Below, in pieces: positions 12,051 through 63,361 of a stretch of 64,000 nucleotides of DNA. Numbering within the stretch: position 1 is the stretch's first letter; each line of letters starts with the position of its first letter. This DNA comes from Octopus vulgaris (Eukaryota). The translations under genes were made by a program, and so were the position numbers. Below the pieces are notes generated by a model that made no database searches, had not been told where the DNA came from, and was given only the letters and a program-made list of their open reading frames with translations. The stretch lies in contig OX597829.1 of the NCBI GenBank assembly GCA_951406725.2, positions 29,264,001-29,328,000 on the forward strand. The letters run 5' to 3'.

Positions 12051-14269
12051 GAAAGAGAGGGAGAGTTATTAAAGGATTTTATGAGGTTAGCAAAGAAAAG
12101 CTGTAGAATAAAAATATCAAATAGCCATGATAACCTAATTACATATCAAATAACCAAGGATGCACTTGCTGAGTTACATTCTAATCTTTCCCAATATGAA
12201 ACTTGTCAGTTTTATATTCTGATCTCTTAGAAATTCAGAGAAAAATTCATAGAAACATCTATTCTCACATTAGCAAACATTGCATCAAGATGGGTCGATA
12301 ACAATTGATTTACATTGTGCAATAAATTATTAATACTCAATCCATCACAGAGTAATAATATATTTCAGATGAACCAATTATTTTGTGATCATGCAGTCCA
12401 TTCCCAGGAGACAACCATCATAAAATAATAAAACAGCCCAAACCAATGAATATGGTAAACATGAAATTAGGCAAATAGTTTCCAAATCAAACTAAATATG
12501 AATGAAAAAAAAATGCCTAAATGATTGTTTCAGACAATCAAAATTTAAAAAGAGCAGTTATTCATTTGTTCAACATAAATTTTCCATAACATGCAAGAAA
12601 TGGGGAGTTATTGAAGGCATGATTTTACAACTAGATATTCATCTTACTGCCAACACTTACCTAATTTTCAAGGTAAGAAATTTTGTTTAGTTTTTTTTTT
12701 TTTTTTTTTTTGCTTAAGAGGTCTTTGAAAGTACTGAGTGACTGGCCATATTGTAAACAAAGAATGTCAACGTCAACAACACTTCACTCAAATGGTGACA
12801 AGCATGGAACATCAACATTCAGGAAGATACGTGCACTCATACACATGACAGGTTTTTTTGTTTTTGCAGTTTTCAACTATTAAATTCACTTACAAGGTAT
12901 TAATAAACCAAAAGGTTGTGGTAAAAAACATTTGTTCAAGATGCCACATGGTAGGGCTGAACTCAAAACCACGTGGTTACAAAGTGAACTTCCTAACCAC
13001 ACAGCAACGTCTGCCCCTTTAAGTAATTCTTAACATGTTTTAATGGGGAGATGGGTGTCGTAGCAGCAAACCCCAACTCATTACTTATGAAATGCATTGC
13101 TAACCAATATAATATCTAATGCAAAGACTTCCAACTAGAAATCCAAGTTTTACAAACCTTTCTTAAGTTTGTAACCTGAACTATTCATAAAAGAATTTTT
13201 TTTTAAGTAAAAACAGAGAAAACTTGCATCTTTAGTTCCCACAGTTAATAACCTTTCCAATGTATTTTTGTTTAACTTTATTATTTCATTCTAAACTACT
13301 TTTAAAACAAGACTAAATTTACAAATTTATAAACTTTTCCAATTACTCTGTGCTTATCAACACAGTAAATGTACCATCTTTAAGCTCTGAATTTCTAAGT
13401 TATTTTTAGATCACAGAGACCACGAGTAAAAAATTATTTATACAAAAGATGCTTGGAAGATTTCCAGACATTGTGTAAGGTTATAATGTGCCCAGACTGT
13501 TGAGCTATTTCAAAATTGTGATTATGATGCAAATGTGAGGAGAGTAAGAATGGTTGTTGTCTTTGACTTGAACAATAAAAGAGGACAACTTCAATTCTCA
13601 TTGAGTAGAAATTGGAAGGAAATATAAAAATACACTATATAAATGAAACTATGACCATCTCAAACAAACCAAGAGAAATCAATAAGTTTGTTATAGATTT
13701 ATAAATGTTAAAAACTAAAAAAATGTGTTTTATTCTATTATTTATAAAACAAAGCAATTTGCCAAACCTTTTCCTCTATGTGTGTGTGTGTGTGTGTGTG
13801 CATGTGTGCATGTGTGTGTACACACACATATATACAAAAAAACAATTTGGTATATATTAGTATTGTTGGTCAAGAAAAATAATAGAAGAGATAGCATTTA
13901 TAGAAATCTATATATAGAAACATAGAAATTAAGTAATCTAAGGATTCATGTGTTTGAAATGTACTACTGCAACAAAGATATACAAATGTTAACATGTTAT
14001 GATGACAAGATACTAAGAGAATAAACCTCTCCTTGTGCTTTAAAAAGTACAAAATTATGCATTTCTGATTATTTTGTATTGATACAACAGGTTGGAAAGA
14101 AGTTCCTGTTACACATTTGAAATTATCACTTTGAGTGTAGTTTTTCAAACTTATGGTAAAATAACCAATGTGTTGTTTTCTTTTTCATTCTTTCTTTGCA
14201 GTTACTTTATAACCAGAATGGTTAAATTCATATCAATTTCCCCTCATTAAAATGAGTTATGATCAGACA

Positions 14270-15645
14270 CATATATGCTTGCTCTATGAATTCCAAAGGG
14301 GTTTTCAGTAATGGGGGTGGCAAGAAATACTCATTCTGAATTTGAGAATGAAACTTTATGTGTCCAAACATACCAATAATGGTTTGGCCAATTTTGCTCC
14401 AGAATTTTTTCTCTAGCAGATTCCCTTTGATCTGAGGAATTAAGATCTGTCAATATTGAGCTTCTGAAAATCATAGTTTCAATTCAAGATCACACTTTGA
14501 TCATAAAATACCTTCATAAGTTATGGAAAAATGTCTAATGCTTAGTAGGTCCCTCATCATCCAACTGCTTCTCAGCTTAAACAAAACATTGAATGAGTAG
14601 ACTTGCTACTTAACCTTTCCTGGGTAGAATCATCACAAGTAATGAAATGAGAGGTCTCTATAACCATATCCAATGTGAGTGACAATGAAACAGGAAGAAT
14701 CATTCCTAAACCAGGACTACACCAAAAAAATGTTTTATGTTTAATGTTTGGTAGGATATGAAGAGTGTCCTCTATCATGAAGTGTTAAACAAAAATGGAA
14801 GTTAATGCAGAGAAGCATTGTCATCAATTAGAATTTTTTTTTTGTTCTTTTACATGTTTCAGTCATTTGACAGTGGCCATGCTAGAGCACCACCGTAAAG
14901 AGTTTTTTAGTCAGAGAAATCAACCCCAGGACTTACTCTTTGTAAGCCTAGTACTTATTTTATTAGTCTCTTTTGCTGAACTACTAAGTTACAGAGACAT
15001 AAACACACCAACATCAGTTGTCAAATGATGGTGGGAGAATACAAACACAGACACAAAGATACACACATAAATATATATATATACATATATATATATTGTC
15101 CCACCCATGCCAGCATGGAAGGCAGATGTTAAACGATGATGATGATGATATTCAACGGGCTTCTTTCAGTTTCTGTTTTACCAAATCCGCTCACAAAGCT
15201 GCCACACAGTGGGACTGAACCCGGAAAAATGTGGTTGGGAAGCAAGCTTCTTACCACACAGCCATGCCTGCACAAACATTTGCAGAAAAAGCACCCATAG
15301 TTAGTCAGTCATAAAGGGGTGTTGATCTTACACAGTAATGCAAAACTACATATTGCCCAAATCACTCAGAAAAATACTACAGTACTAAACATCAAAGTTT
15401 TGCCTCGTCCTCCTTACTTAACTGAACTTACTCCATCTAACCATCATCTTTTCAGATCATTGCAACATTCTACAGTTTATTAAATGTGAAGAGGATAAAA
15501 ATGATATTGAGTGTTTCTTTATCTCAAAACCTGAAGAATTATACACCCATCAATATTATTTTCATTAAATATACCAATTAAGACCAAAGGAGCATTTGTT
15601 TCTTTTCTGTTTGAAATGAGACTGGACTTTCTTTCCAACCAATTA
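14270..15645 (+). mobile_element. Decayed mariner, interrupted by a SINE
   Basis: FLGRIITSNE (FLDRIITGDE-like) at ~14617; LHSNAKLH and LPRPPYLTELTPSNHHLFRSLQH at ~15328-15468. Confidence 0.8.
14845..15272 (-). mobile_element. SINE family A copy nested in mariner
   Basis: Collinear match; itself carries an RTE tail fragment at ~15097-15149. Confidence 0.8.
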
Positions 15646-16257
15646 TTTCATGTTATTGGTACTTATTACAAGATAATCAATAGTTCTTCTCGATATGAGA
15701 TGTATACTAAAACAGCTGAGGTATGATGACTGTGAATAGAAAAATCTGTACCTATAGTAGTTTTAAAGGAATAAATGAAGCTAAGTCATTTATTCCTTTA
15801 ACAAGAAGTCAAATACAAATATGGGGAAGAGACAACTGGGCTAGTTTGGAAAGGTAAATTAAACATATGTCAGTTGATCAAAAGAATAAACATGACAGTG
15901 GTAGGTGAAATACAGTATGAAAATGAAGATTCAGAACAAAAGTGGTTAGATCAAAGTTGAGAACTACTATCAACCCTAACAAAATTTAAAGCAGCATCTA
16001 TTATGATTTATTTATAAACAGCTGGTTTAACCTGTTATAAAATTGTTTCTTTTAAACACAACTATTTTGCCTTTTATAAACAGAATGTTAATATCAAGGG
16101 AAAATAGTGTCAGGAAATTACCAGAAGGAAAACAGTAATGGATTTTCAAGATTTAATAATGATTTAAATGAATAAAACTGGGAACAAGAGCTGAAATTTG
16201 AGGGATGAAAATTATCAGTTAAATTTGATACTGCCTTATTTTATCAATCACGATTAA

Positions 16258-16477
16258 CCCTTTAGTATTCAGATTATTCTGTCAAATATAATGTTTGTTT
16301 AGTTACATTGTTTTGAATTAATGATGCATTATCTTGTAGTTAAGAGATTTCGATGATGTGATTGTTTAGTTTTAGAATGATATTGTAAGGCTGATGTGAA
16401 GAACCAGATCTGGTCAGTTTCAACAGAAAATAGGCTAAATATTTTGGCCTGCTATGACTAGTTTGAATGCTAATGGG
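16258..16477. mobile_element. piggyBac-like MITE family 1 (opposite orientation to 687-908)
   Basis: TTAA-CCCTTTAGTATTCA ... TGAATGCTAATGGG-TTAA. Confidence 0.78.
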
Positions 16478-16621
16478 TTAAAGACAAAGTTGAAGTTAGC
16501 TGGTTTTCAATTCAGAATATAAAAGAGGCTGGAACAAATACTGCAAGGTATATTGTCTGGATACCTTAATGATTCTGCTAAGTAAACTGCCCTGATTTAA
16601 ATAAGTAAAATATAATATTAG

Positions 16622-16832
16622 CCCTTTTGAAACCAACCACTCTGAGACTGCCCCTTGATACATGATGCAAACTCTATTTTAAAGTGATCTAAATCAAAAC
16701 CTTCAATCAAAATTTCATATTGAGTTCCAAACACCAGCTTAATAACAACAAAGTTATTTTACTAAATTCTTCATTATTTTCAAAATTAATTCAAGCGACA
16801 GCATATTTCAATAGAAATATAGTAAGAAAATG
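16622..16832. mobile_element. piggyBac-like MITE family 2 (copies at ~4670-4885 and inverted at ~8072-8284)
   Basis: Shared gtgatctaaat.aaaaccttc.atca.aattt core; ends cccttttg / aaaatgg-ttaa. Confidence 0.6.
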
Positions 16833-16899
16833 GTTAAGATCATGATCATCTTCAATTTATAGAAAATTATTTTGTTATAAAACTTAATTTCTTTCTTAC

Positions 16900-17010
16900 C
16901 TTACACTTTACCGTTCGCACAATCTTTTTAACCTTGGCTTCGCAAAATGCTCCACGGTATTTAGCACTGACATCAGTGCCAACACTGAGGAATGGTGGTT
17001 CATCCCCAGC
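16900..17010 (-). CDS. ARID4B: AT-rich interactive domain protein 4 (ARID4A/ARID4B co-ortholog), coding exon, Tudor region
   Basis: 111 nt, ttttgcag|...|gtaaga. Translates [37 protein letters not shown], recognisable as ARID4[38 protein letters not shown]. Confidence 0.97.
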
Positions 17011-17419
17011 CTGCAAAATAACAAAATAGAAATTCCATTTGAGAATCAGACAGCTTTGCTTTTTATTTATTTTTTTTTAATACAAATCATTATATTTCAA
17101 ATATAAAAATGGATCCCTTTTCTCCTAAATAAAACAAATTCTGTAAACAAATGTGCAAGTACCAGGGAATTGTCTGTAACCAGTAACATTTTGAATTCTT
17201 TTACAGGGCTTACAAAAACTGAAGGACTGCTGCAATAAGTGTGTGAAATTGAGAGGTGAGTATGATGGATAAAATTATAATTAACTGATCCTCTTGTATT
17301 TTCTTTTATCCAAAGCCAGAAATTTTTCAGCACACCCTATTGTGTGTATGTGGGTATATGTGTGTGTATGTATATATATATATATATATATACAAGAGAG
17401 GGTGCTGAAAAGTTCTATA

Positions 17420-18330
17420 GATTTCTGCAGCTGGGTGCCCTTCCTAATGCCAACAATTCCGAGAGTGCAGTGGGTGCTTTTTATGTACCAACTACACAGG
17501 TATCATTGACCTGACACCAGCATCAGCCACGACTATGGTCTCACTTGGCTTGACAGGTCAACTCAAGCTCGGTATATTGCCAAGGGTCTTGGTCACCTGT
17601 CACTCGGCTTGTCCTCACTGCTTCCATGAGGCCCAATGCACAAACGATGCTTTTTATATGCCACCAGCCTAGGTGCCAGTCAGGTGGCACTGTCATTGGC
17701 CACAACTACAATTTCACTCTGTTCAACAGATCTTCATAAGCACAGCATATCACCCAACAACTGAAAGTTGCTTTTAACAAGCCAGTGAAACAACACTGGC
17801 ATCAGCCATAACTACAATCTCACTTGGCTTGACAGGTCCTCTCAAGCACAGCATATCTCCAAAGGTCTTGGTCACTTATCATTGCCAAGGGTCTTGGTCA
17901 CCTGTCACTCATCCCATCTCTTCCTGGGTTTACCTCTTCTACAAGTTCCTTCCACCATTAGAGTGCAACACTTCTTCACAAAGCCTTCCTCGTCCATATA
18001 CATCACATGATCATTCCAATACAGTCATCTCTCTTGCACACTACATCTGATGCTTCTTATGTCCTACATATCATGTAAAAAGCACACTTCAAACATTGAG
18101 CCTAACAGAGGCAGTAACAAATGACCAAGACCTGTTAAGCTGGCATTGTGCAACTGGCAAACATGCTTAGTGGTACGTAAAAATTACCCACTACACTCTT
18201 GATGGCTAGAGTTAGGAAGGGCATCCAGCTGTAGAAACCATGTCAAATCAGATTGGAAACTGGTGCAGCTCCCCAGTCAAACAATCCAGCCCATGCCATT
18301 GAAAATGGATGGTAAATGATGATGGTGGTG
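17420..18330. mobile_element. Two RTE 3' fragments in opposite orientation (17420-18060 minus, 18070-18330 plus)
   Basis: Both match the RTE 3' UTR. Confidence 0.7.
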
Positions 18331-19044
18331 GTTAAAATAGAATCAAAGGAAATTGGTGGAAGGCTGCATCAGCAAGTCATATTATTTGGTAAAAGCAAAA
18401 CAATAGAAATAGTACAGTAATGCTGTGCAGAGTGGAGTATCCAAAGCTTCAGACATGTTGAATACTCCTCTCCTCATGACAATTTCAATAAACTATATCT
18501 GTTGCCTCATATATACTCACATATCCAAGCATGTTTACGTGTATGTGCACTTGTGTGTGTGCTTTGTTTATGAATGACTTTTGGAGCAAATGTATTTATT
18601 TATGTGTTTCTGTGTCTGTATGCATCTCTTTCCATGCATGGCATTCATTATTGTGAGTGTGTATATGCACATGTGTGCATGGGTGGATAGATGTGTGCAT
18701 GCGTGCATATGTGCTTGAATGTGTACATTCATGCATGTATTCAGAATGAATTGCATTTACATGTTTTGTGCATGCATTTGTACTTTTAGTGCATTCCTTC
18801 AGTTTTCTTCTCTTTGATATTTTAAATTGTTGAGATAATAATAAAAATTCTTCAGTTTTGAGATTTCCAGGGGTCAGATTCCTTTGAAATTCTTTTCAGG
18901 CTCAAGGGGTTACAGCTAAATGCATAGAGATCAAAACATTTTATCATGCCAATGCATAGTTTTGTGTAAAAACAAGGAAGACACCTACACACAACCAGAA
19001 TTTGATTTTTAGTATTAGATACTTTTGAATACAACCACACACAC

Positions 19045-19622
19045 ACGACATGGTTGTATGGTTAAAAAGCTTGCTTCCCAAACATGTGTGGTCTTACGTT
19101 CAGTCTCACTGCATGGCACATTGGGCAAGTGTCTTCTATAACTCCAGGCTGATCAAAACTTGGTGAGTCTTCTATAACTCCAGGCTGATCAAAACTTGGT
19201 GAGTGGAGTGGGTAGAAGGAAACCAAAAGAAGCCCATATGATGGGCTTCTTTTGGTGTATATACCCTTGTCTTGGCATCATACAATAGTTGAAAACAAGC
19301 AGCACTATCATACAAGTGATACTTGTTTGTTTCCAGTCTTCCAAGTAAAACGTCCTAATATGGGGAAATAGTGAGGATTGGTGACAGGAAATGGCCTGCC
19401 CCTTTCATAATTCCTTGTCTTGTGAGTTACTTGGTTACCCTGCCAGTGCTAGTGCCATGTTAAAAGCATCCAGTCCACACTATAATATGGTTGGCGGTAG
19501 GAAGGGGATCCAGCCATAAAATCCCTACCAAAACATATACAGTAACCTAGGGTAGTTTTCTACCTGTCAACCATCCTACCCATGCATGTATGAAATATAG
19601 ATGTTAAACGATGATGATGATG
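19045..19622 (+). mobile_element. SINE with family A head and RTE-type (GAT)n tail
   Basis: tggttgtatgg...gttcagtctc...ttgggcaagtgtcttcta head; 3' end gatgttaaacgatgatgatg. Confidence 0.65.
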
Positions 19623-19623
19623 A

Positions 19624-19657
<34 letters not shown>

Positions 19658-19660
19658 GCA

Positions 19661-19871
19661 CGAGGGTGTTGAAAAATGTTTGGCTTTAAGCACATCGTGA
19701 AATGCCTGGTTGGAGACCCAACCTTCTTTCTTTTACAGAGTCTAGAAAAACCGAAGGACTGCTATAAGTGAGAATCTGTAAGGGGAAATATGTTGAATAG
19801 AATTAACATATTAATTGATGCTTCTCCATTTTTTTTTTACCTAAAACCAGGAACTTTTTAGCACACCTTTG
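19661..19871. mobile_element. Mariner-derived MITE (related copies at ~17145-17340 and ~55449-55645)
   Basis: TIR-like cgagggtgttgaaaaatgtttggcttt / aaaaccaggaactttttagcacacctttg; shared core gaaggactgc..aataagtg in all three copies. Confidence 0.7.
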
Positions 19872-22066
19872 TATTAATATATGTATATATTAATACATAT
19901 TTATTAATGCCTACTCATGGTGGAGTGCACATTTGGTGTGGAGTGATTAAATTGGGATATGGGACAAAAAGATTGAGACACATTGCTCTACATAAATAAA
20001 GAGATCTGTATAAGAAATTGCCATGGCTAAACAAATAAATCAGTGCATTTTCCAGCAAATCACTGATATAAAAATCATAATAATTCTTTAATGTAAATGC
20101 TGCATCAAATATTAAAAGTAAACAATATCAGGACTGTGGAAATTTAAAATATTTTAAATAGAAAAAATATAAGCATCAAAGGTGGGTTTTCAATTTACAA
20201 AATCAAATCAGAGCAAAACAAGCAAGTCAATTTTCCTTTACAAATGAAGCCATTTCATTCCAACATTGTTAATGTCCTTAGGAGATGGCATCAAATTTAA
20301 TCTATGTTCCTTTTTTGAAATCTACAGAAACTGGTTTCTAGTCAAAAGAGACTAGTTTTAGAATTAAACGAATTTGGAAAATGCAAAATGGTTTGATCTT
20401 GAAAATCGTCATCATTCATCACTAGTTAACGTCTACCTTTCTATGCTTGCATGGGTCAGGCAGAAGTTGTTGGAAATTTTCTAAAGCCAGATGCCCTTTG
20501 TGTCACCAACCCTCACTTGTTTCTAAGTAAAGTAATAGTTCCCCATGGCCAGACATGTTTCTGCAGAATATTGGAAGTAAATAACATAGCTTGCTATGTC
20601 AGTGACACTCATTTAAAAATGATTGCATGATGTCAAGACAAGGACACGGGGACACACACACACTGGTCTTCTTTTCATCTACTCGATCCACTCACAACAC
20701 TTTGCTTGGCTCAGGGCTATAATAGTACACATTCACCCAAGGTGTCATGCAATGAGCCTGAACCTGAAACCATGTGGTTGTGAAGCAAACTTCTAAGCTA
20801 CATAGCCATACCAGCACCTATAAAATTTGCAAAAAAATTTTATCTTAAATATTATCCCAGTAGAACTGCTGGATTTCAAAAGCTAGGAGAAGGTGATTAA
20901 ACTCATGACTCAACACTTTCCATACTGTTTCTCTAACATGAACTAGTTGTAAGTCAAGAAACACTCAAATTAGAAATTAATATTATTCACACATTGAAAG
21001 TAATTAATATTCCATCAAGTCATTCATTTAGAAATAAAGCATGCGTAGATTTAATTCATAATCAGATTTCAGTGACAGCTCATCATAGCAAAAATAATTA
21101 CTTTGAATCAAATCACAAGAATAAAGGTTACATTTATAATTATATTACCACACGACATGCCGAATGGAATACTATTCCCACTTAATTTTAATTTATTAAA
21201 GAATTGCAATGATTCATATTTCAACATGATCTTTCATTATCATCATCATTGCTATTTTCCATGATTGTATGTATTGGATGGCTTAACAGAAACTAGCAAG
21301 GCCAGGGGTTGTGCCAGGTTTTATAATCTGTTTTGATTTGGTTTCTACAGATGGATGCCCTCCCTAACACCAACAACATTACACAGTGTACTGGGTCACT
21401 TTTACACGGCACCATCACAAGTGCTTTTTACATGGTTACCTTGGTTTTAGAGCTTCAATCTGTTGTGCTGACCAGATCTTTATTGATATGATAGATTAGT
21501 ATTTTTTTTAACAATTCAGATGACTTCATTTTAAGTTCTTTACTTGCATATGAACTTAGTGTGTTACTAATATTACAATGAACCAAAATGGGAGATACTG
21601 AGTAACCATTTGGCCTACTAGTGAGAGCAACCAAATCTCTCTGAAATCACACCCTATTGATATAAAATAAAGGGTTATATCAGATAATGTAGTCCTGGTA
21701 CATACATGAGGCACAGGCATGGCTATGTGGTTAGGAAGTTTGCTTCATAACCACATGGTTTCAGGTTCAATCCTAGTGAATGGCATTTTCTCATAAACAT
21801 AGGCATATTTCCACACATCTTTCCACTGTCACCAGCTGGGCAGTGATGATGTTTGTTTATGACCAACATAAACAATTTTCTTTCAGTGCAGCATTTCAAC
21901 ATGTGAAAACCAGTAGAATAAAGGACCCTAGGTGAAAACAAAGGTTCACATCAGGAAGGGCATCCTGTCATAAAATACTGCACCAGGAAGTCTCAGTCAA
22001 TCCATACCAGCGCAGAAAAAGTGAACACAAAAATGATGACAATGGTAATATCTGTTCATGATATAA

Positions 22067-27411: not shown

Positions 27412-28569
27412 GTCTAGATGAATGCTGACCACCTTTGCATCTCCACTCCTATCTTGACAAAAAAAGAATGACTCACGCCCACGCCTGAAACTTGACAAGT
27501 AAAAACCAGCTGCCATTAGTCAAATACAACCCCAACTAGCTAGTTTAACACTAATTCTCCTTACACTTCTCAAAATTTGTACACCCCGTGCAGACCCCTG
27601 CAAACTTTTCACTCCTTTCCACTACCACAATGTCAGTACTTGTACCAGCATTATAGAGAAGCATGAGCCCTAACTTGGAAAGCAATGACCGATTAAAAAC
27701 TAAAGGGAACACTTTAGTCCTGGTAACCTATCTAGTGCTGATAGTATATATACATCATAAATTCCATCCAACAATTATTATTATTATTATTATTATTACG
27801 GTATTTATCCTACATTATATAGGCACAGCTCACTGCAATTCCAATAAACTAGCATTGCCAGTTGGCATTCATTAAGTTGTAGCTGACATAATAGGAGCTT
27901 TTATATGCATATTCAAAGCATTTCCTTAAAGGAGATGTGTGTCTGTGTGAATATGTATATATATATATATATATCAATTACTAGCAAGAGCACAGTATTT
28001 TGCTTTGCAGCCATAAATAACTAATATGTGTATTAAAGGTTTACAAGTCAATATTGTCTTATTTTTTGTATTAGCAGTATGATATTCTCACTTCTATGTT
28101 TATCTCTACCGATTTTCTATAGAATTCAAAACCAGCACTCTAGGTTACAACATTTCATTTCATATTACAGTGCTGGCTATGAATTCTACAGAACACCTAT
28201 AGAGATAAACTTAAAAAATAAATCATCATTGTTTAACATCTGCTCTCCATGCTAGTATTGGTTGGACAATTTGACATGAAGCTGGTTAGCAGGGAGCTGT
28301 CCAAGACTCCAACTGTTTGTTGTGGCATGGTTTCTACAGTTAGATACCCGTCCTAACACCAACCACTTTAGCAGAATGTGCTGGGTGCTTTTTACATGCC
28401 ACTGGAATGGTTGCATTTACACTGGCACCTGAAAGGACAAGCCTGTATGTGTGGAAGACAGCAATTTTACTTAGATTGACACATCTTATGAAGTACAGCA
28501 AATTACCACATTTCCCGGTCCCTTGTCATTTCCTCAGTGACACCCAGCGTCCAAAAGATCCTTTTATTC

Positions 28570-29630: not shown

Positions 29631-29648
29631 TATGGTAGCATATATGTA

Positions 29649-30503
29649 TGAGGTGGTATTGTAAAGTTCCTGGATTAGGTATGTTTAACATAACTTATTT
29701 AACTTAAGTTTTGACATCAACTCCTTCGAAATAGTTGCCTTGTACAGCAGTGTTCCTGCCACTTTTGGAATCCATAAGCAAGTCGAGGACCTTCTGCAAT
29801 TCACTTTTGATCTGGACAACGGTATTAAAATGCCAACCTTTGAACTGCACTTTCATCCTGCGGAAGAGTTGAAAGTCCTCAGTTGCTAAATCTGGTGAAT
29901 AGGGCGGGTGTGGAAGCAATACCATGTTGTTTTTGGTGAGAAACTCACAAGTGGAGAGAGCTTGGTGACAGGGATGCATTGTCATTGTGAAGAATCCAAT
30001 TCTTCATGCTCTAAACATCTGGTCGCTTTCATTGAATGTCTTCCCTCAAATGCTTCAAAATGTCACAGTAGAACTCTCGATTGACAGTCTGGTTCAAGGG
30101 GATGAATTCTCAACGCACAATACAGCAGATGTTGAAAAACAATAAGCATGCTCTTGATTGAGCTGTGGCACTGTCATGTGCCCATGCCACTCAAAACATT
30201 ACATACAACCCATTGCCTCATCACCATAAGCTTGTCAAAGTATGCTCAATGTCTATGTAGTACACTTCTCAAGTTTAATGCAAAATTTCACGTTGGCTCT
30301 TTGTTCCAACTTCCTGTGGATGACAAAAGTTGCAGACTACAAAAACATAAATTTAAGAACTTGCAAAGTAAACACTGTGCTGTCACTCAGCACACTGTCT
30401 CATGAAGGTCACTGCTAGCTCTCACTGCACACACACATAAACATGTGCTGCCATCTGTTGCTGCTCTACAGAACTAGTTTGGGAACTTTTTGATACCACC
30501 TTG
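29649..30503 (-). mobile_element. Internally deleted mariner transposon
   Basis: TIRs tgaggtggtattgtaaagttcc / ggaactttttgataccaccttg with TA flanks; LLPHPPYSPDLATEDFQLF. Confidence 0.9.
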
Positions 30504-30594
30504 TATATATATATATATTTAAAGGAAGGAAAAGAGAAAACTGAGATAAGGAAGTTAATAGTTGTTTATTATTAACAAATTGGTCATCTTCACT

Positions 30595-30689
30595 TCTTAC
30601 AGCCGTTTCAATTAATACTCAGTAATTTAATTACAAATTTGTACATTAAATTTACATATATGTGACATGAGTATAATTTTCATCAGAGA
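30595..30689 (-). ncRNA. Type I hammerhead ribozyme with long stem II, left arm of palindrome (sense to ARID4 pre-mRNA)
   Basis: Reverse complement of the 30792-30886 motif, with intact CTGATGA and GAAAC-GGCT-GTA boxes. Confidence 0.68.
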
Positions 30690-30791
30690 AAAAAAGATGT
30701 ACTTTGGATGTTAAATGTGGACCTATCAATTCATTTCAGCAGTCTGCTGAAATGAATCGATAGGTCTACAATCCAAAGTACATCTTTTTTC

Positions 30792-30886
30792 TCTCTGATG
30801 AAATTATACTCATTGTCACACAAATGTAAATTTAATGTGCAAATTTGTAATTAAATTACTGAGTATTAATTGAAACGGCTGTAAGA
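30792..30886 (+). ncRNA. Type I hammerhead ribozyme with long stem II, right arm of palindrome
   Basis: TCT-CTGATGA(30795-801)-AATTATACTCA...TGAGTATTAATT-GAAAC(30872-76)-GGCT-GTA-AGA. Confidence 0.7.
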
Positions 30887-31099
30887 AGTGAAGATGACCA
30901 ATTTGTTAATAATAAACAACAATTAACTTCCTTATCTCAGTTTTCTTTTTTTCCTTCTTTTAAATGGATATAAACTATATGCTTAATATATATACCCATT
31001 GTTTTAAGGGAATTTCATTCCCCAACAATACTAGGTATTAAACCAGCATTTCCTTGGATGAAACCATCCCTTCACGAGATTAACATATCGTCTAATTAA

Positions 31100-31130
<31 letters not shown>

Positions 31131-31199
31131 CTCTCAGAACAAAATTTGAAAACATTTAGAAAGAAACTATTGTAAAGTATTAAAAAATTGTTATTGGCG

Positions 31200-31960
31200 C
31201 CATACTGTGAAGTTTAAGACAAAGTAAGCATGTCGCCCTGTTCTACACCACAACTGACTGAAAACAAATCTGAGCATTCTCCAAATTATAACACACGTTC
31301 TCATATTATTATCACATAAAATATTATCAGGAAAGGCCATGATATATTTGTGAATTTAACAGAACAGCCAGCTGTTTTGCAAATCACCCATAACACATCA
31401 TGATTCACTATATCAAAGGCCTTTGTGAGATTAATAAGGCTTTTGACAGAAGTCGAGCCACTTCTGTCCAATGTATTTTTCTGGTATTTGACAAGCTAAA
31501 AATATGTTATGAGCTCCACAAAAGAATGGGACCTGAGTGCAGAAAAATGGAACTCAAGAAGAAACAAGGTCCCAATGTGTTGATTAAGCCTATCAAGAAT
31601 AGTACTACTCAATATTTCTCCAATATCAATTCCATAGGAATTACCACATTTATCTTAACTAGCTTTTCTTTTGTAAAAAATATTCATCCATTTTCCCACA
31701 GATCATATATAAGGTAGTGTAAGAGATACAACTTATTTCCACCTAAGCTGAGCATGTCTGCTAGAATTTCATCAATGCCAGGAGCTTCTCTATTTTTTAG
31801 TTTCTATTTTTTACTTCATTGAAAGTAGGGGGATCATCATTTGTTTTATTAGAATTTGGTGGAAATAAGTTCTGCAAATAAACTAACCAGTGTGATGAGT
31901 GATTAAGCAGGTCATTAAAATACACTTGCTACTGTTGAAGAATCTAACTTGAATCTTTTA
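31200..31960 (-). mobile_element. Old LINE RT fragment
   Basis: Minus strand LKNREAPGIDEILADML and TKAFDIVNHDVL; heavily disrupted. Confidence 0.6.
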
Positions 31961-32708
31961 TTAGTGTTTTGATGTCCTTAGCCAAAATTAGAATACAGAA
32001 AATTAAACAAAAACCGTAAATCTGATTTATAAAAAAGTAAAGCTATTTAGTATCTCATTTTGTTATAGGCTTTCTGAAATCATAACCGCATTAAATCTAT
32101 TCTTATTTTTCGCACGTCAGATTTCTTTCTGAATGTGTAACTTAACAGTTTTAGACTTGGTCCAGTAAATTTACATTTTGACAGTGTTGCAAAGATAATA
32201 AGCTTTGTATATACTTATTTTTGACAAACTAAACTTTATTTTTGAGCTTTATAATCTACAATACTTCTGAAATTTGGTAAATCCAGATTTGTGTAGAGAC
32301 ATAGGAAAACTTACAATGAACGAATGCAAAGACACTGGGAGAGACAAGCAGACTCGAGCACTTTTAGCCATAATGAAGGCAGCTTGACAAGAAGATCACT
32401 ACAAATAAAAACTTGGTGAATGAACCCAAAACAATCTTTCATTTGAAAACATTTGTGCTTCAATTGTGGTATAAGACACTTTGGTATTGTGCAAAAAACA
32501 TAATTTTTTTTTTTTGTTTATAGATATCTTAGATCTTATCCATGCACAAGTATTGCTTTTTAACACAATCATTCCATTTAATTGAACTATCATAAAATTA
32601 CCTGATAATTTTGGGATAATATATTCTTATATATATTAAATATCCTTGTACATACTAATATGTTTGAATAACCTTGCATATATTGTACATCTTTATATAT
32701 ATATATAC

Positions 32709-33006
32709 TTTATTTAAAAGTAGCAGAAATTTAACAAAAGCTGTTACTCGGAGTTTCACGTTCCCATTCGTCGGACAGTTTTGTTAAAATAGAACCGAGA
32801 TGACAATTCTATCAAGACTAGTATAAATGTTACTAGAATTGTCATCTCGGTTCTATTTTAACAAAACTGTCCAACAAACGGGAACATGAAACTCCAAGTA
32901 ACAGCTTTTGTTAAATTTCTGCTGCTTTTAAATAAAACATATTACTCCACCTCTGGTATTTGAGTACTCTTTTTTCCACCTTGTTTCACATTTGTGTTTA
33001 CTCTGG
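32709..33006. mobile_element. Penelope-like non-autonomous element: inverted repeat 32709-32936 plus tail, between (TA)n tracts
   Basis: Arms of about 103 bp (32709-32811 / 32833-32936) carrying the minimal hammerhead-like motif; (TA)n flanks. Confidence 0.68.
32741..32778 (-). ncRNA. Minimal hammerhead-like motif with CCGACGA core variant
   Basis: Minus strand: CTGT-CCGACGA-ATG-GGAA-CGT-GAA-ACTC-C-GAGT-A-ACAG. Stems I, II and III all pair; triplet GTA. Confidence 0.6.
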
Positions 33007-33019
33007 TATATATATATAT

Positions 33020-33610
33020 CTCACAGCCGGGTCTACAAACTTCCTTTCGCTGGCGGCCTTATTCAAGTAAACATGTTTCTTCCTGCGCTCGTGAAATAAA
33101 CTTTTTCCTCGTCTAGGCTTATAGGCCCTCTTTATTTGTTTTCCTGTCCTGTTTCTATTCCTTTTTGTACTGTATTTCTTGTAATTGTATTTTTATTTTG
33201 TATTTGTTTTTAATTGAATTGTTTTGTTTTTATGTCCTATTTTTGTCACATTTTTTTTCCTTGTTTTTACCCCTCTGCAAAGGAATTTTATTTAATTCTT
33301 TTGCAGGAAGGACTAGTTCGACGAGACGTGTTCTGTCCTCACCTTCGAAACACGCTGGAGTTGAACTAGGGACGGCTGATGAAGGGGATTTTTCCTTGTG
33401 TAGTTGTCTTGTACTCTGTTTTTTCGTTGTTAAAGGAATGGTCCATTCCATGCTGTTTTTACGTTTTCGTTTCTCGTTGAGTTATACATCTATTTGTGGT
33501 GTCCTGTACACACGTATATATATTTATATATGCATGTATATATACATGTAGATGTAGGTACGTACATATATGTTTGTATGTATGCATATATTTTATTTAT
33601 TACACTATTA
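33020..33610 (+). mobile_element. CpG-rich repeat inserted in (TA)n, probably retroelement terminal-repeat derived
   Basis: Sharp composition change between TA tracts; contains GAAAC and CTGATGA boxes and a hairpin at 33313-33369. Family not determined. Confidence 0.45.
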
Positions 33611-38994: not shown

Positions 38995-39875
38995 TATGTT
39001 TTTATGTGATACTAATAGTTTCATATGTTGAGAAATATACCTCAAACATATTCATCAGGCACAAAACCACATATAACAAATTAAAAATTAAATGAGAGAA
39101 GAAACACAAAAAGGAATAGAAAATGTGTAGAAGGAACATGTGGAAAAGATAGACCCAGGAAGACATAGGACAAAGTAATGAGAAAGGATATACAGACATT
39201 GTGACTCACAGAGGAGAAGACAGGAACTGAGACTCCTGGCGGTTTTTGTGTGCTTGGAATGACATGTCAAGCTAAGTAAAAGTGTGATTATCCTTGCATA
39301 CAGGCTTGACCCCTGCAACCCTCTCCAGCTGAGCAACCCTAATCTTGCAGGCTCACGGATGCTGCTGCAAAGTAAAAAGCATCCATACTGGTGCCACATA
39401 AAAAGCACCCATACTTGTGCCACATAAAAAGCACCCATGCTGGTGCCATATAAATGCACCCATGTTGGTACTGTGTAAAAGCACTCACTACACACTGTAA
39501 AGTGGTTGGTGTTACAAAAGGCATCCAGCCATAGAAACTATGCCAAAATGAACATGGAGCCTGGGCAGCTCGCTAACTCCTGTCAAACCATCCAAACCAT
39601 GCCAGCATGAAAAAAGGACATTAAATGATGACAATGATGATGATGATGACACACACACACACACATGTATGCATTTATATATACATATCATCACCAGTGC
39701 AGGTGGCACGTAAAAAGCACCCACTACACTCACGGAGTGGTTGGTGTTAGGAAGGGCATCCAGCTGTAGAAACATTGCCAGATAAGACCAGAGCCTGGTG
39801 CAGCCTTCTGGCTTCCCAGATTCCCGGTCGAACCGTCCAACCCATGCCAGCATGGAGAACGGACGTTAAACGATG
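38610..39875 (+). mobile_element. Cluster of three RTE 3' ends (38610-38913, ~39190-39648, 39693-39875)
   Basis: Each ends tta/aa(c/t)gatgat; separated by microsatellites. Confidence 0.8.
38927..38991. repeat. (TA)n microsatellite
   Basis: Pure TA run. Confidence 0.95.
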
Positions 39876-44129: not shown

Positions 44130-45050
44130 CTTGCCCCAACTTAGAAATGTTTTCAATTGCAATTTAATACTGAGTTCCTACCAGAACAAAGCCAATGAAC
44201 CTGGATTATTATATAGCTTGTATGACTTGCATATTCCAGTTACCCTGAAATCCACTGGTGGCAAAATGTGTTTGGGGACAAAAATACAATCCTCACATTT
44301 TTGCACAATTCCCTCATTAGGAGGATACCCATTATCCAAAACCAACAAAGTTTTCAAACAATATTTCTTTCGCAATTGGGCAGAAACAAGTCTTAAACCA
44401 GGTTTCAAAAAGGAGTTTTGTCACCGTGCTATTTTACTGACTTATGTACAGCTGATAACCATTGGCTTTAGTTTAAAGTTGTCACCAGCATTTCCTACCA
44501 TTAAAATTCCTATTCTGTCTTTTGACACTTTATAATCAGGATTGGTATGATTGATTGATTTTAGTTTCAGCTCATGAGCTGTGGCCATGCTGGGGCACCG
44601 CCATTTAGAATGGGGTTTTTCCTTTTTTTTTTTTTTTTTTAAATCTTCCTCAGCAAGGAAAGTTTAAGGGAATACACTTCCATAAATAAAACAGTCTCAG
44701 CAACATGCTTTTTATAATGCCTTTAACAAGGATGGTGGATTTGCTTTAAATTCTTACATTGTATAAGAAGCCTTAAAAACTACCAGAGCTGCCTATAAAA
44801 ATTTGTTTTTGTTACTTCATTGCCCCTTTTCAAGATCAGTAGTAGATTCAAAGCTTTTGTTCAATGCTGTATCTGCTCTAATTAATTTTCAGTCTATTTC
44901 TGTTATCTTGTTCCAATTTCGAGTTAACCGCATTGCTAAGATGTAACCATCTGTCATTTTTTCTTATAATTTTCGGCTTACTTTCAAAGGGTGCATTACC
45001 ATTCCTTCGTCCAGTCTAAATGGGCACTAAAGTTACTTCCCTGAAATAAC
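44130..45050 (-). mobile_element. pogo/Tigger-like transposase remnant
   Basis: KTLLVLDNGYP...ILPPVDFRV resembles the Tigger LLILDNAPGHP...IQPMDQGV segment. Confidence 0.6.
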
Positions 45051-45190
45051 TTTACATTTTTGCAGTCATTCTCACCTTCGTTTTCCCTCTTCTCAATTAC
45101 TATACAGAAAAAAAATGTTCTAAATCAAAAAAAGAAGTGATGTCACAGAGAAAAACGGAAAAAAAAGGCTTCTACAACCAGCTAGCAGCG

Positions 45191-45204
45191 GTTGCTATGA
45201 CAAC
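45191..45204. promoter_or_regulatory. RFX X-box-like motif
   Basis: GTTGCTATGACAAC is an imperfect palindrome matching the X-box pattern GTTGCC-AT-GGCAAC. Confidence 0.4.
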
Positions 45205-47912
45205 AAAATAGGAGATTTAAATTTTTTCACATGGGATCATGTGGTATGGAATTTATCTCCTGTTAAGACAGGCTACAATAAATAAACCATGTAAATCAGG
45301 AATTATTATCAAGTCAGGGATTCCTGTATATGAATACGTGTGTGTGTACATACACGTATTTATAGACATATGTAAATTTCATATATATATATATACGTGT
45401 GTATAACTATATATACATACACAAATATATAGACATATGTATATACACACTCACATGTATACATATACGGATGCATATGAATATACATCTACATCTGTAT
45501 ATACTATATGTACATATACATGTAGGTACAAATGTATATAAGGACGCATGCTTATAGATATGTATATATACGCATTTGTAAGTATGCATATTATACAGAC
45601 ACATTCATATATATATATATTGCGTGCATATTATAAATATATATATATAATACATACGTACATGCAAACACACACATACACAATGTGATCACACCGTATC
45701 TTTTTGTCGTAGACGGTAACTTGAGTGGTAACAGACGGGGCATCTAGATTGAAACACTGCCCCAGAAAATGAATACTGATAATCATACAGCCCACACAAG
45801 CTAACGCCGTTTTGTGACAGCAAATGTCTGTAAATGTGTATGCGTGGATATAGTGTCAGCAAATAGAGATATTTAAGTACATGGAGGCACAAGAGTTTAT
45901 GTTTTGGTGGTTTTTAAATAACACAATAAATCATTTTCCCTCTAAACACTCACGTCCAAAAAAATAATGTTTTTATAAACTTCATTTCTTTTATAATGTA
46001 AGAAAAATTATAATTTTCTCTAGCCCATCCACATGTTCACAGATACACACATTGTGGATGTAAGGAAGAATTAGCTATTCCATCTACATTTATTTAATTT
46101 CTATTTCTACGTGTCGCTGCCACCCTCCTTCCACATATCAAAAATGTCGAACATTGATGATTCAAATAACCTACAAGAACGTGCAATGTCGAATTATTAT
46201 TATTAACTGAACTGAAAATAAACTATTTACCAACACATCATCATATAACACAGGCAGAGAGATATTTCGGCCATGTATTTGATGAAACAGTGGAAGGGTG
46301 AGATGAGAGAGAGAAAGGGAAAGAGGAAAGCAGAGTATGTGTGTAAGGGAGAGAGATGGAAGGGGGGGAGAGAGAAAACAGAAGTAGCAGCAGACAAAAC
46401 ATCGCCAGAAGAGCCTAATCCAATGCAACTAATTCAAGATGGCTTGAGAGTTTATTGGTTATATCATAGAGAAAGCGGGCATCAGTCAGTCTACTACATC
46501 CAAACTGTAACACCATCATAATAAATATTCGTTCCTTTTGACGAGGCATGACACTGAAAGTTAATTTGACTGTACAGTTTGAAACATAGGTATAAAAAAC
46601 CACAAACAAGACTATCATCTCTACTTAGGATAGGTGTTTCTTTCTCCTCCCACCATTAATTTCTTCCTTTTTTTTCCCTCCTTCTCCCTTTGCCAATCGC
46701 TTGGTTTATGAGAAAAGATTCATAAAGCACACTAAAAAAATCTACCGTTACAGAAAAAAAATACGTGCTGACGACAGGGCAATGACAGTTTGAAATATGA
46801 GATTAACTACAACTCCACAGTAGAAATAACAGCGCTTCTCTTCATCCATCACTCATTCCATATATATATATATATATATTTGGTATGACTAGTTGCCTTT
46901 AGCATTAAATCTGCAGTTGATCGTTAGAAAAATTAACATTCTGATTCGAAACACACCATGCCGTATAAAAAAAGTTACAATTTTCCTCTTCCATTTATTA
47001 AATTGTTTTCTCTCACATTTGTTTTAATATGGACCATAAAGCAAACTTGTCAGGTAGTGCTGATATTGAATCTAAGCTTATACACCACCTACATTTGCCT
47101 TTTTTTCTCTTTTTTTAAGTGTTCCTAGCTAAAGCACAGTTCAAGGCAAGAGCAGTCAGTCAGTTTGCACACCAGACTGGATCCTTCTTCGATCGAAAGA
47201 GACACACGTAATATAGATACAAAAGACAAAATATACCCTTCTGAATTTCATTAAGATAGTGTAAAAACGTTTAATCTTGTGGAATCGAAACATTCTCACC
47301 GTCTCCTACACAAATCTGCTTGAAATAATTCAATAACAATGGTGATAAACTGGACGGAAATTTTTCGAACGAAAATTAATGATTAATAAAAGAGAAATAT
47401 GGAAAGCTAGTTTTAGGGAAAACGTTAATATCTCTAAACGTGTGTGAGAGTACATATTTAAATATATATAATTCCAGATACATGTGTAAAATTTAAATCT
47501 GTTATTTTAATACAAAACAATGTGAATTACATGTGGTCCATATAATGTACATATAGCGATCAGAAAGGATAGCTCTCTAAATTTGCATTTTCCTCTCTTT
47601 AGCATAGATTATTTGTCCGCGAACGGAAATTTGAATGTCTTACAAAACAAATTAAAATGATAGTAGTTAAAGTGTGGGTGTGTGTTTGTCTTTTTAACAA
47701 GAAAATAGAAATGATCTGCACTGAACTAGCAATAAAAGGAATCACTGTGAATACACACATATGTACGCCAACTCGACTTTCTCTCTTCGACATTTAATAA
47801 CGGCACATCGTTTTAAGATTACACGATCCGACACGGATATATTATCAGTGAAAACTACATAAATATGACTTTTAGTAAAAGAGACCAAAAGAAAATGTTT
47901 TAAAACACTTAC

Positions 47913-47915
47913 CAT
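47913..47915 (-). CDS. ARID4B: ARID4 ortholog, start-codon exon (coding part is ATG only)
   Basis: Minus strand reads TCG TAA AAT TTC ATC ATG|GTAAGT: a consensus donor directly after an ATG, with an in-frame stop 4 codons upstream. A phase-0 join to the 17010 acceptor gives M-AGDEPP, matching the ARID4A/B N-terminus (MKAADEP). It lies in the CpG-rich, repeat-poor zone. A possible acceptor (ctcttttacag) would bound the exon at 47937. Confidence 0.7.
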
Positions 47916-48600
47916 GATGAAATTTTACGAATCAATTCTGTAAAAGAGTCTTAAATTTATAAAAAAAAAAAGCCTCCTTGACCCGTCTGTGCCTATCCAG
48001 CTACTATGCTGCTGCTTTCAGTTAAGCACGCTAAAGCTATATTCCACTTTCGTCGCCGCCCTTAGTAGCGGAGTGAAGATATTGTATTCAAACTAAAAAA
48101 AATATTTCTTCAATACAATCTACTTAAATGAACGGGGAAAAAATAAACTTGGAATAATCGGATTCATTTAAAATGGTCATCTTCGTTACTGAGAGGCCTA
48201 GTCCGTTAAACATTCTCATTATCTCGAAAGAAACATGAGTAGCTGACGAGAGCAGCCTGAACATGACAACTGTAACAATGCTGATTGAAAAGTAAGGGGA
48301 GTTAGATGTAAGTGTGAGTCAAGTGTAGGTTTGAGTAGCAGGTTTGGAGTGGAGTGTAGCTGTACGAAAGAGGTGGAGCATATGAATGCTCTGAAGTCGT
48401 TTACTTGCTTGTTGGTCTCGATTTCATCATTTAAATTGCAACCCAATGCGTTGTGTATTTTAATATACAAAACGCACAGCTCTCACACTCTTTGCTGTAT
48501 CGTAGATCGTTTGGCCTGCCTGTCTCGCGACAGGCCGTATCACTTAGTTATATTGGGGTCATTATGTAATTTAATAACTGATAAACATATGTAAACAAAT
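47916..48600 (-). promoter_or_regulatory. Probable ARID4 5' UTR / promoter zone
   Basis: Directly upstream of the ATG exon. No interspersed repeats and many retained CpGs (e.g. cgtcgccgcc, tctcgcgac) compared with the introns. TSS cannot be placed. Confidence 0.5.
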
Positions 48601-48961
48601 ACAACTCAAGAAAATGTGCGTGCATGTGTATATATATATATTCGTTTATTATCTTGTGTGTGCAGGCATATGTGTTTGTATTTGTGCGAGTTTTATTTGG
48701 AAATGTTATCTACTACATCTCTTAAGCTAATCCCTCAGGTTGGCGAAAGGTAGTAACTTGATGTAGAGTACTAGTTTGGTTACATACGTTATATAGTGTT
48801 GTTGTTGATGGTGTAGTATATGCCAACTCAAACTTAGTCGAGCTTGAAGGTATTAAGAAAATAGGGTGTAATATAACAAAAATGTGGTTATTGTTTCTAG
48901 CAGATCGAGTGGCCACGTAGAAACTCTTTCTTTGATGCTATATATATCTATGTACATATAT

Positions 48962-49130
48962 ACTGGCTACTTCTGGCTATTTCCTCATGTTGAACCGTTA
49001 ATCCCTCCTCTTAATCCGTAGGCTCGAAGCGTATCAGACTTTTCCATTCTTCCCGAGTGTTAAACTTAATACACCTGCTTTTTGTTACTACACCTGTCTT
49101 CGTCTTTTGTTCTCAGTAAATTTGAACTAC
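48962..49130 (+). mobile_element. Degenerate Penelope-like terminal-repeat fragment in TA-rich context
   Basis: ctcgaagcgt..gacttttccattcttcccgag...cacctgtcttcgtcttttg tail between TA runs; only a decayed GAAAC box remains. Recognised from recall of cephalopod repeats. Confidence 0.35.
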
Positions 49131-50799: not shown

Positions 50800-51100
50800 A
50801 TTTATCGGTAAATCACGTAACAGGAAGCTAAGTTCCTATTTGATTGAAAAATTACAGAGAAAAACAAAAAACACCACTGCAGACTGGTTCATCACATATA
50901 CAACATGTAACAGAAATAAAAACCAAGAGGATAATTGGTTAGAAATTAACAGATATGACCGAGCAGGTACGCGCATGATAATGTCTCGTTACTTCCGGTC
51001 ATAATGCTATGTAACAGGAAGTCAGCTGCAAAGCTAGAAGTCCCCGCCTTTACAGTGTCTCCTCTCCGCGATATTCTTTTCGTCTTTCACTTCGATTCGT
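50800..51100. promoter_or_regulatory. Candidate housekeeping-type promoter (ETS, GC-box, NRF1-like motifs)
   Basis: ACTTCCGG 50991-50998, CAGGAAGT 51015-51022, CAGGAAG 50821-50827, CCCCGCC 51042-51048 and ACGCGCATG 50969-50977, in a CpG-retaining unique segment. Confidence 0.55.
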
Positions 51101-59294: not shown

Positions 59295-59841
59295 ATAATA
59301 TTAGGGAGTAAATCCAAACTTACAGGGAAAAATTAGATTTAGGATTAAATCTAATTTTACAGTATAAATATATATATTAAATTAGAGATAAAACCACTAT
59401 TAGGCAAATCAAACAGTGAAAAACATAAACCAAAACATAGAAATAAAATTAATTAATATAATATACAAAATATATATAAAAAATATATAAAATATAAAAT
59501 TTAAAATTTAAATTATTTAAATTAAAATTAAGATTTTAAAAAAATTTCTAATTATTAATTTATACTTATAAATTTATATATATATATATATACATATATC
59601 TATATATTTTTTATTATTTTTATTTTTATTATTATTTTATATTTTTATTTTTTTTATATTTATTTTTTAAAAAATATATATAACTATTAAAAAGTATTAA
59701 AACGTTTAATATAAGATAATATCTTATATTAAATTTTTTAATACTTTTTGATAGTTATATATATTTTTAAAAAAATAAAAAAATAAAAATAATAAATAAA
59801 TAAATATATTTTTAAAAAATAAATAAAATAAAAATAATAAA

Positions 59842-59914
<73 letters not shown>

Positions 59915-60093
59915 TATATAAATTGATAATTTAAAAAAAAATTTATTTTAATTTTAATTTTAATTTTGAATTTTATATATTTTTTATATATTTTGGATAT
60001 TATATTGATTAATTTTATTTCTATGTTTTGGTTTATGTTTTTCACTGTTTGAATTGCCTAATAGTGGTTTTATCTCTAATTTAATATATATAT
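59291..60093. repeat. About 720-bp extremely AT-rich palindrome (59368-60093) with tail, Penelope-like layout
   Basis: Centre A59719 (tttaatataagata-a-tatcttatattaaa); the outer arms ttagagataaaaccactattaggc / gcctaatagtggttttatctctaa match exactly. Confidence 0.8.
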
Positions 60094-63229: not shown

Positions 63230-63361
63230 TCCTCTGACGAGGCCTTTGGTTATTTAAACAGACAAATATAATCTTTAATGTCTAAGACTATACTACAATG
63301 GCATATATGAGCAATTTAAGGTGGATTGCCTCTTGACCATAGGCTGAAACAGCTGTAAGGA
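63230..63361 (+). ncRNA. Type I hammerhead ribozyme with long stem II (Penelope-like element associated)
   Basis: Stem I TCCT(63230-33)/AGGA(63358-61); core CTGACGA 63234-40; stem II GGCCTTTGGTTA...TGACCATAGGCT; GAAAC 63346-50; palindromic AGCT; cleavage triplet GTA 63355-57. Confidence 0.75.

Follow-up and report, generated by a model that had tools for sequence, protein, structure and literature searches.

Penelope-like elements (PLEs) typically insert as an inverted 5′-truncated copy beside a direct copy, with a tail on one side and a microsatellite as the target, an arrangement given as standard in PMC8557442 and PMC2377424. Copies joined head to head, with a palindrome at the junction, are reported to be abundant and are attributed to self-priming (PMC3846280), and the tail is described as the region between two internal reverse-transcription starts of an enzyme that nicks AT-rich DNA (PMC11167929), with a length of 30 to 40 nt (PMC8557442). 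Dual minimal hammerheads on opposite strands, 100 to 700 bp apart, were reported in 2014 by Cervera and de la Pena (PMC4209133); as characterized there, PLE hammerheads have an extra nucleotide that separates position 9 from position 10.1, a palindromic stem III, a helix II of 6 to 8 bp, and a highly conserved G10.1-C11.1 pair. In the literature searched, we found neither octopus PLE hammerheads nor a splice donor at a cut site, and no long stem II forms, some of which may appear in Lunse et al. 2017 or in the supplements of PMC4209133. Here, we describe an octopus palindrome with two opposed hammerhead motifs in an intron of ARID4, which we read, with a probability of roughly three in four, as a dead 5′-truncated PLE insertion whose masking hairpin is a by-product of insertion and not a selected switch.

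The window is the whole 64,000-nt stretch of Octopus vulgaris DNA that was analyzed; its features are collected in Table 1. Contigs of 4 of 24 sequencing runs (X5, X8, and X12, of DNA type, and X15, guessed to be RNA) were mapped to positions 30200 to 33200 at 80% likeness. Junction evidence was taken from the best 15 of 438 joints and from 12 of 223 rows.

Table 1. Coordinates of the palindrome, its surroundings, and the ARID4 features in the window (positions are those of the window)
Feature	Position	Strand	Description
(TA)7 target microsatellite, left	30504..30517	.	Abuts the outer end of the left arm
Left arm	30517..30742	-	226 nt; inverted, 5′-truncated, tail-less pLTR-like end copy; sense in ARID4 pre-mRNA
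Type I hammerhead motif, left arm	30598..30686	-	Sense to ARID4; predicted cut after GUA at 30598
Mirrored candidate intron, left arm	30600-30541	-	Seen in the sequence
Head-to-head junction centre	30743	.	One base
Right arm	30744..30965	+	222 nt; direct 5′-truncated copy; antisense in ARID4 pre-mRNA, transcribed first
Type I hammerhead motif, right arm	30795..30883	+	Predicted cut after GUA at 30883
Candidate intron (60 nt) in RNA of the element	30881..30940	+	Donor-like GTAAGA at the cut triplet, then a TTAAC resembling a branch site, a pyrimidine tract, and CAG
One-sided extension (tail)	30966..31102	+	Same repeat family; starts with ATG at the end of the right arm
(TA)14 target microsatellite, right	31103..31130	.	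Bounds the tail
Second head-to-head insertion	32703..33006	.	Unrelated very high-copy family, same intron, minimal hammerheads
Lone hammerhead motif	39010..39058	-	Sense to ARID4, same intron, no inverted partner
Lone hammerhead motif	63234..63357	+	105-nt stem II, fully palindromic stem III ACAGCUGU; outside ARID4
ARID4 exons	about 17010-16897, 4336-4268, 183-91	-	Match P0002
ARID4 second coding exon	about 16900..17010	-	AGDEPP...KCK
Predicted ARID4 start codon, end of first coding exon	47913..47915	-	ATG then GTAAGT, in a CpG-rich region

Three minus-strand exons match the Octopus bimaculoides ARID-domain protein P0002 (38/38, 23/23, and 31/31 residues), and since ARID4 lies on the minus strand, it is the left arm that carries the sense hammerhead, 13.6 kb ahead of exon 2. 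The predicted exon 1, read in frame with exon 2, gives M-AGDEPP, which P0003 also has and to which P0006 is similar, and with this prediction the first coding intron is 30,902 nt long. An initial annotation of this DNA had placed the palindrome in ARID4 intron 1, which agrees with the predicted first coding intron as delimited by the exon matches to P0002 and the predicted start at 47915. Pfam gave no name for the 37-residue exon, which the protein search did name, and no convincing match to the alternative first exon of P0002 (residues 1 to 33) was found in the window. The CpG-rich stretch that contains the predicted first exon (45000 to 52000; observed/expected, 0.56 to 0.97) has CpG-poor flanks on both sides and may indicate a second gene in the opposite direction.

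Aligned with each other, the two arms are identical in 211 of 229 columns, and their differences amount to 8 substitutions and 5 gap events, one gap being of 6 nt; the longest run without a difference is 81 nt. The palindrome strand folds at −312.6 kcal/mol (z = −39.5), and equal stability was reached in 0 of 100 shuffles, so that the annotated palindrome of ~450 bp, with ~225-bp arms and a 1-nt centre, is confirmed by both alignment and fold. The annotated end of the element at 30965 was wrong: contigs of the same family continue on the right side for ~130 nt past this position, to about 31090 to 31100, reaching (TA)14 at 31103. Among the 32 pieces listed (of 32,709), 13 extend from the right arm to 31039 to 31089, 9 of these to 31085 to 31089. 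No further copies of the 30.5-kb element were found in the 64-kb window.

An assembly fold-back artefact, excluded here only indirectly, is the least probable of the explanations weighed. PLE inverted structures are reported to trouble assemblies (PMC8557442), and the centre junction of this locus occurs in 0 of the 32 contig pieces listed (of 32,709); against this, the arms have diverged by the substitutions and gaps given above, the mirror symmetry ends at 225 bp and gives way to unique flanks, the tail on the right is family sequence of a kind that a fold-back of the left arm is unable to create, and the second palindrome (32703 to 33006) has CpG decay in one arm only.

The palindrome belongs to a repeat family. 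Unique sequence had a depth of ~24 in X5 and 27.5 in X12, and the two hammerhead bins together stood at ~2,250 to 2,280 times the unique depth, which, as a contig depth and not a copy number, points to a family on the order of 10^3 arms, roughly a thousand or more. Tail depth at 31047 was ~1,600 times single-copy depth in X5 and X12; the tail/arm depth ratio (about 0.55 to 0.75) was dropped as a measure of the palindromic share because it was too noisy. Orthologous contigs of the 30.5-kb element break off at (TA)n and show no empty site. Family patterns matched neither metagenome contigs nor phage records (0 in each).

Depth at the centre bin was 6 to 7% of that of the two core bins in X5, X8, and X12 (a rough measure), and four listed contigs part from the reference at 30741 to 30742 and continue with 104 to 154 nt of other sequence; copies are thus 5′-truncated at differing points. 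Among the joints listed, another junction, 30679/30742 on opposite strands, was present in three contigs of X5 and one of X8, and further head-to-head junctions in other copies were 30639>30788, 30654>30786, and 30733>30843. The 30679/30742 junction hits the hammerhead core, 30679 being the base after A9 (one case). Record 11 of X15 (30704 to 30850) spans nearly the same centre as the reference, with 22 other letters and 11 gaps, and for these differences is assigned to another copy.

These junctions bear on whether the palindrome might be a non-autonomous unit of MITE or retrozyme type, duplicated in full around a constant centre. Record 11 of X15 does show one other copy, at least, across nearly the same centre, and rotifer pLTRs with fixed 5′ palindromes are described in PMC3846280. 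Such a unit is nonetheless improbable given a centre bin at only 6 to 7% of core depth, four other junctions, an extension on one side only, the four listed contigs that part at 30741 to 30742 for 104 to 154 nt, and the lack of the head-to-tail tandem found in retrozymes. A MITE or fold-back DNA element was rejected because the one-sided tail, the low centre depth, and the several junctions do not fit a fixed centre and symmetric ends, and a non-LTR retrozyme was rejected because there is no head-to-tail tandem, only an inverted pair with no further copy in the window.

Each arm holds a putative hammerhead with the core CUGAUGA, a 70-nt stem II, and GAAA, ending GAAACGGCTGTA and then AG, so that the type I core elements (CUGANGA, GAAA, and UH) are present in both, and the two motifs are oriented outwards. 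Stem III is 2 bp in both arms with the loop GGCU, the AG after GUA pairing with CU ahead of the core; the closing pair of stem II is A-U in both, replacing the conserved G10.1-C11.1, and the left-arm motif has an additional A between core and stem II. In constrained folds, stems I, II, and III can form around the core in either arm, with the hammerhead fold lying above the free one-arm ensemble by 4.0 (left) and 6.7 (right) kcal/mol, gaps that come from a folding program blind to tertiary contacts and are no measure of activity. Being self-complementary, stem III has −9.7 kcal/mol in a two-copy duplex and +2.4 as a hairpin; it is of the dimer type, and each strand has one sense copy only.

A structure-aware scan, with rules loosened after the first matches were known, gave 5 motifs for the window; in 30 dinucleotide shuffles, the mean was 0.33 (range, 0 to 2). 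Rfam hammerhead models gave 0 matches at the gathering score over the whole window; at E ≤ 10 over 30000 to 33600, the 28 sub-threshold matches included no hammerhead and were mostly generic miRNA hairpin models. Judged by their motifs, these putative long-stem-II type I hammerheads are missed by Rfam. The two opposed hammerheads with 70-nt stem II named in the initial annotation were thus located, one in each arm (Table 1). It had also given them the same ending as an unrelated element at 63.2 kb: the two are unrelated indeed, with 84 of 200 shuffles aligning as well as the real pair, but the ending is not shared, since the 63.2-kb motif has the loop AGCT instead of GGCT and a stem II of 105 nt. 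The element around the 63.2-kb motif has its 3′ end at (TA)n 63489. An AG-free stretch after this motif was rejected as special, there being 64 such runs of ≥100 nt in the window, and its donor-like site has no acceptor by the rule used.

The second head-to-head insertion lies 1.7 kb from the first, with arms of 109 nt (32703 to 32811 and 32834 to 32942), a ~65-nt tail on one side to about 33006, (TA)n at both ends, and several junctions. Its minus-strand hammerhead (32774 to 32745) has the core CCGACGA (U4C), and its plus-strand hammerhead is decayed at CpG sites. In organism E, record 8 of X12 matches 31142 to 32693 and continues with 912 nt unlike the window; by this comparison the second palindrome appears to be missing from the orthologous site and hence not to be long conserved. 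The lone motif at 39.0 kb has a 29-nt stem II, a 3-bp stem III, and (TA)n 19 nt downstream, with a C.U mismatch at the first pair of stem I, beside the cut site.

Several other repeats lie in the window. A repeat at 33019 to 33520 had a depth of 12,835 to 20,591 in X5 and of 8 to 32 in X12 over 33028 to 33200, and its family is missing from organism E; its plus strand has GAAAC and CTGATGA pieces that fail the hammerhead scan. An element of ~870 bp with 45-nt terminal inverted repeats (29640 to 30512), which we take to be mariner-like by its look, provides with its right end the TA run beside the palindrome. An AT-rich 725-bp fold-back (59368 to 60093; 82% alike, with a few-base centre and (TA)n at both ends) and smaller decayed fold-backs (28079 to 28229 and 54534 to 54590) were negative in the hammerhead scan.

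At the 30.5-kb locus, a type I hammerhead motif, an inverted 5′-truncated copy, a one-sided tail, variable 5′ truncation, and a (TA)n target occur together, as in PLEs. Each outer end of the two palindromic insertions, four in all, abuts (TA)n, whereas sequence no more than 15 nt from (TA)n makes up 3.6% of the window; a target duplication is unreadable inside (TA)n. The earlier suggestion of an inverted pLTR-type Penelope structure is borne out by the one-sided tail, the (TA)n ends, and the junctions that differ between copies. The 30.5-kb element has no ORF, a homologue search with the 41-codon open frame of the tail was empty, and no PLE reverse transcriptase or GIY-YIG gene was found among the window ORFs listed; because no PLE protein is linked, membership is assigned on architecture. 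The same lack of a linked PLE ORF, together with the unusual lengths of stem II and tail, would fit a hammerhead-bearing end of a non-PLE retroelement inverted by twin priming. We regard this as very improbable, since a type I hammerhead with palindromic stem III, a one-sided tail, and (TA)n targeting form the PLE combination, and a poly(A) tail is present at neither end.

As a PLE insertion, the locus would have arisen when the PLE enzyme nicked AT-rich DNA, here a (TA)n run in the ARID4 intron. Reverse transcription would have begun at two internal sites, leaving the tail on one side, and an inverted 5′-truncated copy would have been added, bringing two hammerhead-bearing ends head to head. 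In ARID4 pre-mRNA, the antisense arm would be made first, followed by a 225-bp duplex ~110 kcal/mol more stable than the hammerhead fold. An unmasked single arm would presumably be slow to cut, making the insertion nearly neutral, and the duplex would be hyper-edited by ADAR like other repeat hairpins and lost with the intron.

Folding agrees with this order of events. The geometry by which the antisense arm precedes the ribozyme arm on either strand, as pointed out in the initial annotation, holds. On the minus strand, the duplex has −301 kcal/mol and the best hammerhead-keeping fold −186.5, and the ensemble gap between masked and hammerhead states is 112 kcal/mol on this strand, against 110 for the plus strand. 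Under prefix folding, pairing of the core with the antisense arm sets in immediately on synthesis. Capture of the ribozyme in dsRNA, also proposed earlier, is accordingly what folding predicts, with the core paired as soon as it is made and a gap of ~110 kcal/mol, and the ribozyme is predicted to be off in the ARID4 transcript. Converting 20% or 50% of the As outside the core to G in silico, in 6 draws per level and with G overrating the pairing of inosine, still left a gap of 84 to 116 kcal/mol; six As of the hammerhead core are themselves editable.

The further proposal, that this masking is a built-in off switch explaining why the ribozyme is tolerated in a host pre-mRNA, was not supported. 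PLE insertion is known to produce such a mirror arm as a by-product (PMC3846280, PMC8557442), and masking needs no selection because it follows from the geometry of any head-to-head insertion with an arm that reaches the core. Masking is probably not needed to account for tolerance either: single PLE hammerheads are reported to cut little or not at all (PMC4209133, PMC11167929), and a lone sense hammerhead stands at 39.0 kb. Cleavage by a single PLE hammerhead motif was undetectable in PMC4209133, and for the anole PLE hammerhead PMC11167929 reports no cleavage without protein and no read ending at the cut site. From the 2-bp self-complementary stem III, the missing G10.1-C11.1 pair, and the lack of a sense partner for a dimer, we infer that one arm cuts slowly. 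Low activity is here only inferred, since good monomer cleavage is described for invertebrate retrozymes whose stem III is 2 bp with a tetraloop (PMC7229834, PMC7761336).

A selected switch would mean that fast cutting by a lone arm harms ARID4 splicing and that selection keeps mainly those sense intronic copies that are masked. The computed masking is complete, cotranscriptional, and robust to in-silico A>G changes, and two of the three sense-strand hammerheads in the ARID4 intron lie within palindromes and are masked, as such selection would predict, the third having the stem I mismatch. Slow intronic ribozymes leave splicing unaffected and fast ones lower it (as cited in PMC10919898), antisense oligonucleotides block an intronic ribozyme (PMC10919898), and Xenopus introns are reported to be depleted of retrozymes (bioRxiv 10.64898/2026.07.22.740005). 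We still consider a selected switch unlikely: mirror arms arise without selection (PMC8557442, PMC3846280), junctions differ between copies, single PLE hammerheads are described as near inactive in vitro (PMC11167929, PMC4209133), and the conserved G10.1-C11.1 pair is missing. Moreover, the same intron retains a lone sense copy (a single case, with a mismatch beside the cut site), and the second palindrome, apparently absent in organism E, does not look long conserved.

PLE pLTRs are described as carrying short introns (75 bp in Penelope; PMC2377424), with the pLTR intron ending just ahead of the hammerhead (PMC4209133). In the octopus arms, the hexamer at the cut triplet, GTAAGA, is also found at the donor site of ARID4 exon 2, and an ATG stands at the end of the arm, after the candidate CAG acceptor, where the tail begins. 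By a rule set afterwards, an acceptor lies 45 to 130 nt downstream of 4 of 85 donor-like sites in the window, 2 of which are those of these arms. No spliced joint for the 60-nt candidate was found among 15 of 438 joints. AATAAA, present in each arm, was rejected as special, as the intron has 33 sense copies.

It is conceivable, if doubtful, that the cut triplet doubles as a 5′ splice donor of a 60-nt intron before the start codon, with splicing and self-cleavage mutually exclusive because the donor sits on the cut site, and that masked copies might survive in sense introns. Spliced RNA of the element would then lose the ribozyme and be translated, and unspliced RNA would keep the ribozyme and be cut or copied; in head-to-head copies, ribozyme, splice signals, and AATAAA would all be concealed by the antisense arm. 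That masked copies are the survivors in sense introns is, taken as a step by itself, less probable still.

The locus offers ADAR a long near-perfect duplex in a transcript, namely a predicted 225-bp duplex in a predicted intron. Because the octopus hyper-editing signal is among the highest and self-folding repeats are strong targets (PMC5625713), the duplex is plausibly an expected and unremarkable ADAR substrate. Lizard Penelope copies are reported to have over 40,000 editing sites (PMC5625713), and young repeats are described as the main editing targets across animals (PMC9989829). In X15, 64 places had A>G or T>C and 63 had C>T or G>A, a ratio of 1.02 (0.83 to 0.96 in the other three runs) that is uninformative either way, since the region is flooded with other copies and rare variants are lost in contigs. 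Unique intron sequence is matched by three short X15 contigs at a depth of ~3; these contigs may come from DNA.

As things stand, the palindrome is one of many PLE stumps and carries little weight. Seen more broadly, octopus introns hold ready-made loop-free duplexes from PLE insertion, two of them within 2.5 kb of one ARID4 intron, and PLE-derived duplexes would be a likely source of the high hyper-editing in octopus. Should one arm turn out to be active, and should the mirror arm be over-represented among sense intronic copies, the locus would be a clear instance of insertion geometry filtered by ribozyme toxicity; if the cut site were a splice donor, it would bear on the role of PLE hammerheads and retained introns.

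The architecture is already known for PLEs, and the octopus locus adds one example; what sets it apart from published descriptions is a stem II of 70 nt, A-U pairing at 10.1-11.1, and the length of its tail. Compared with EN+ PLE pLTR insertions (Penelope/Poseidon and Neptune, as described in PMC3846280, PMC8557442, and PMC2377424), it has the same head-to-head 5′-truncated copies with a palindromic junction, the same one-sided extension, the same microsatellite target, and a hammerhead in the repeat, but no ORF is left and the tail is ~130 nt and not 30 to 40. With the metazoan PLE minimal hammerheads of PMC4209133, its motifs share the core, the extra nucleotide after A9 (left arm), the self-complementary stem III, and the 100- to 700-bp spacing of the opposite-strand pair; they depart from these in a 70-nt AU-rich stem II, A-U in place of G10.1-C11.1, and an extended stem I interrupted by an internal loop. 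Animal non-LTR retrozymes, as presented in PMC7229834 and bioRxiv 10.64898/2026.07.22.740005, are likewise short, non-coding, PLE-related units of high copy number with a type I hammerhead, but theirs are head-to-tail tandems of 150- to 450-bp units, whereas the octopus locus is an inverted pair with a tail. Like the self-folding repeats targeted by ADAR (Xenopus Harbinger and lizard Penelope; PMC5625713), the palindrome would pair tightly with itself, needing no distant partner, and it belongs to a species group with very high editing; those repeats are edited, whereas the octopus hairpin is a predicted substrate by its fold. The intronic CPEB3 ribozyme (PMC10919898) is comparable as a self-cleaving motif within an intron, with an effect that varies with its speed and can be blocked by a complementary strand, but CPEB3 is HDV-like, conserved, and active, whereas the octopus motif is a repeat-derived putative hammerhead with its antisense arm in cis.
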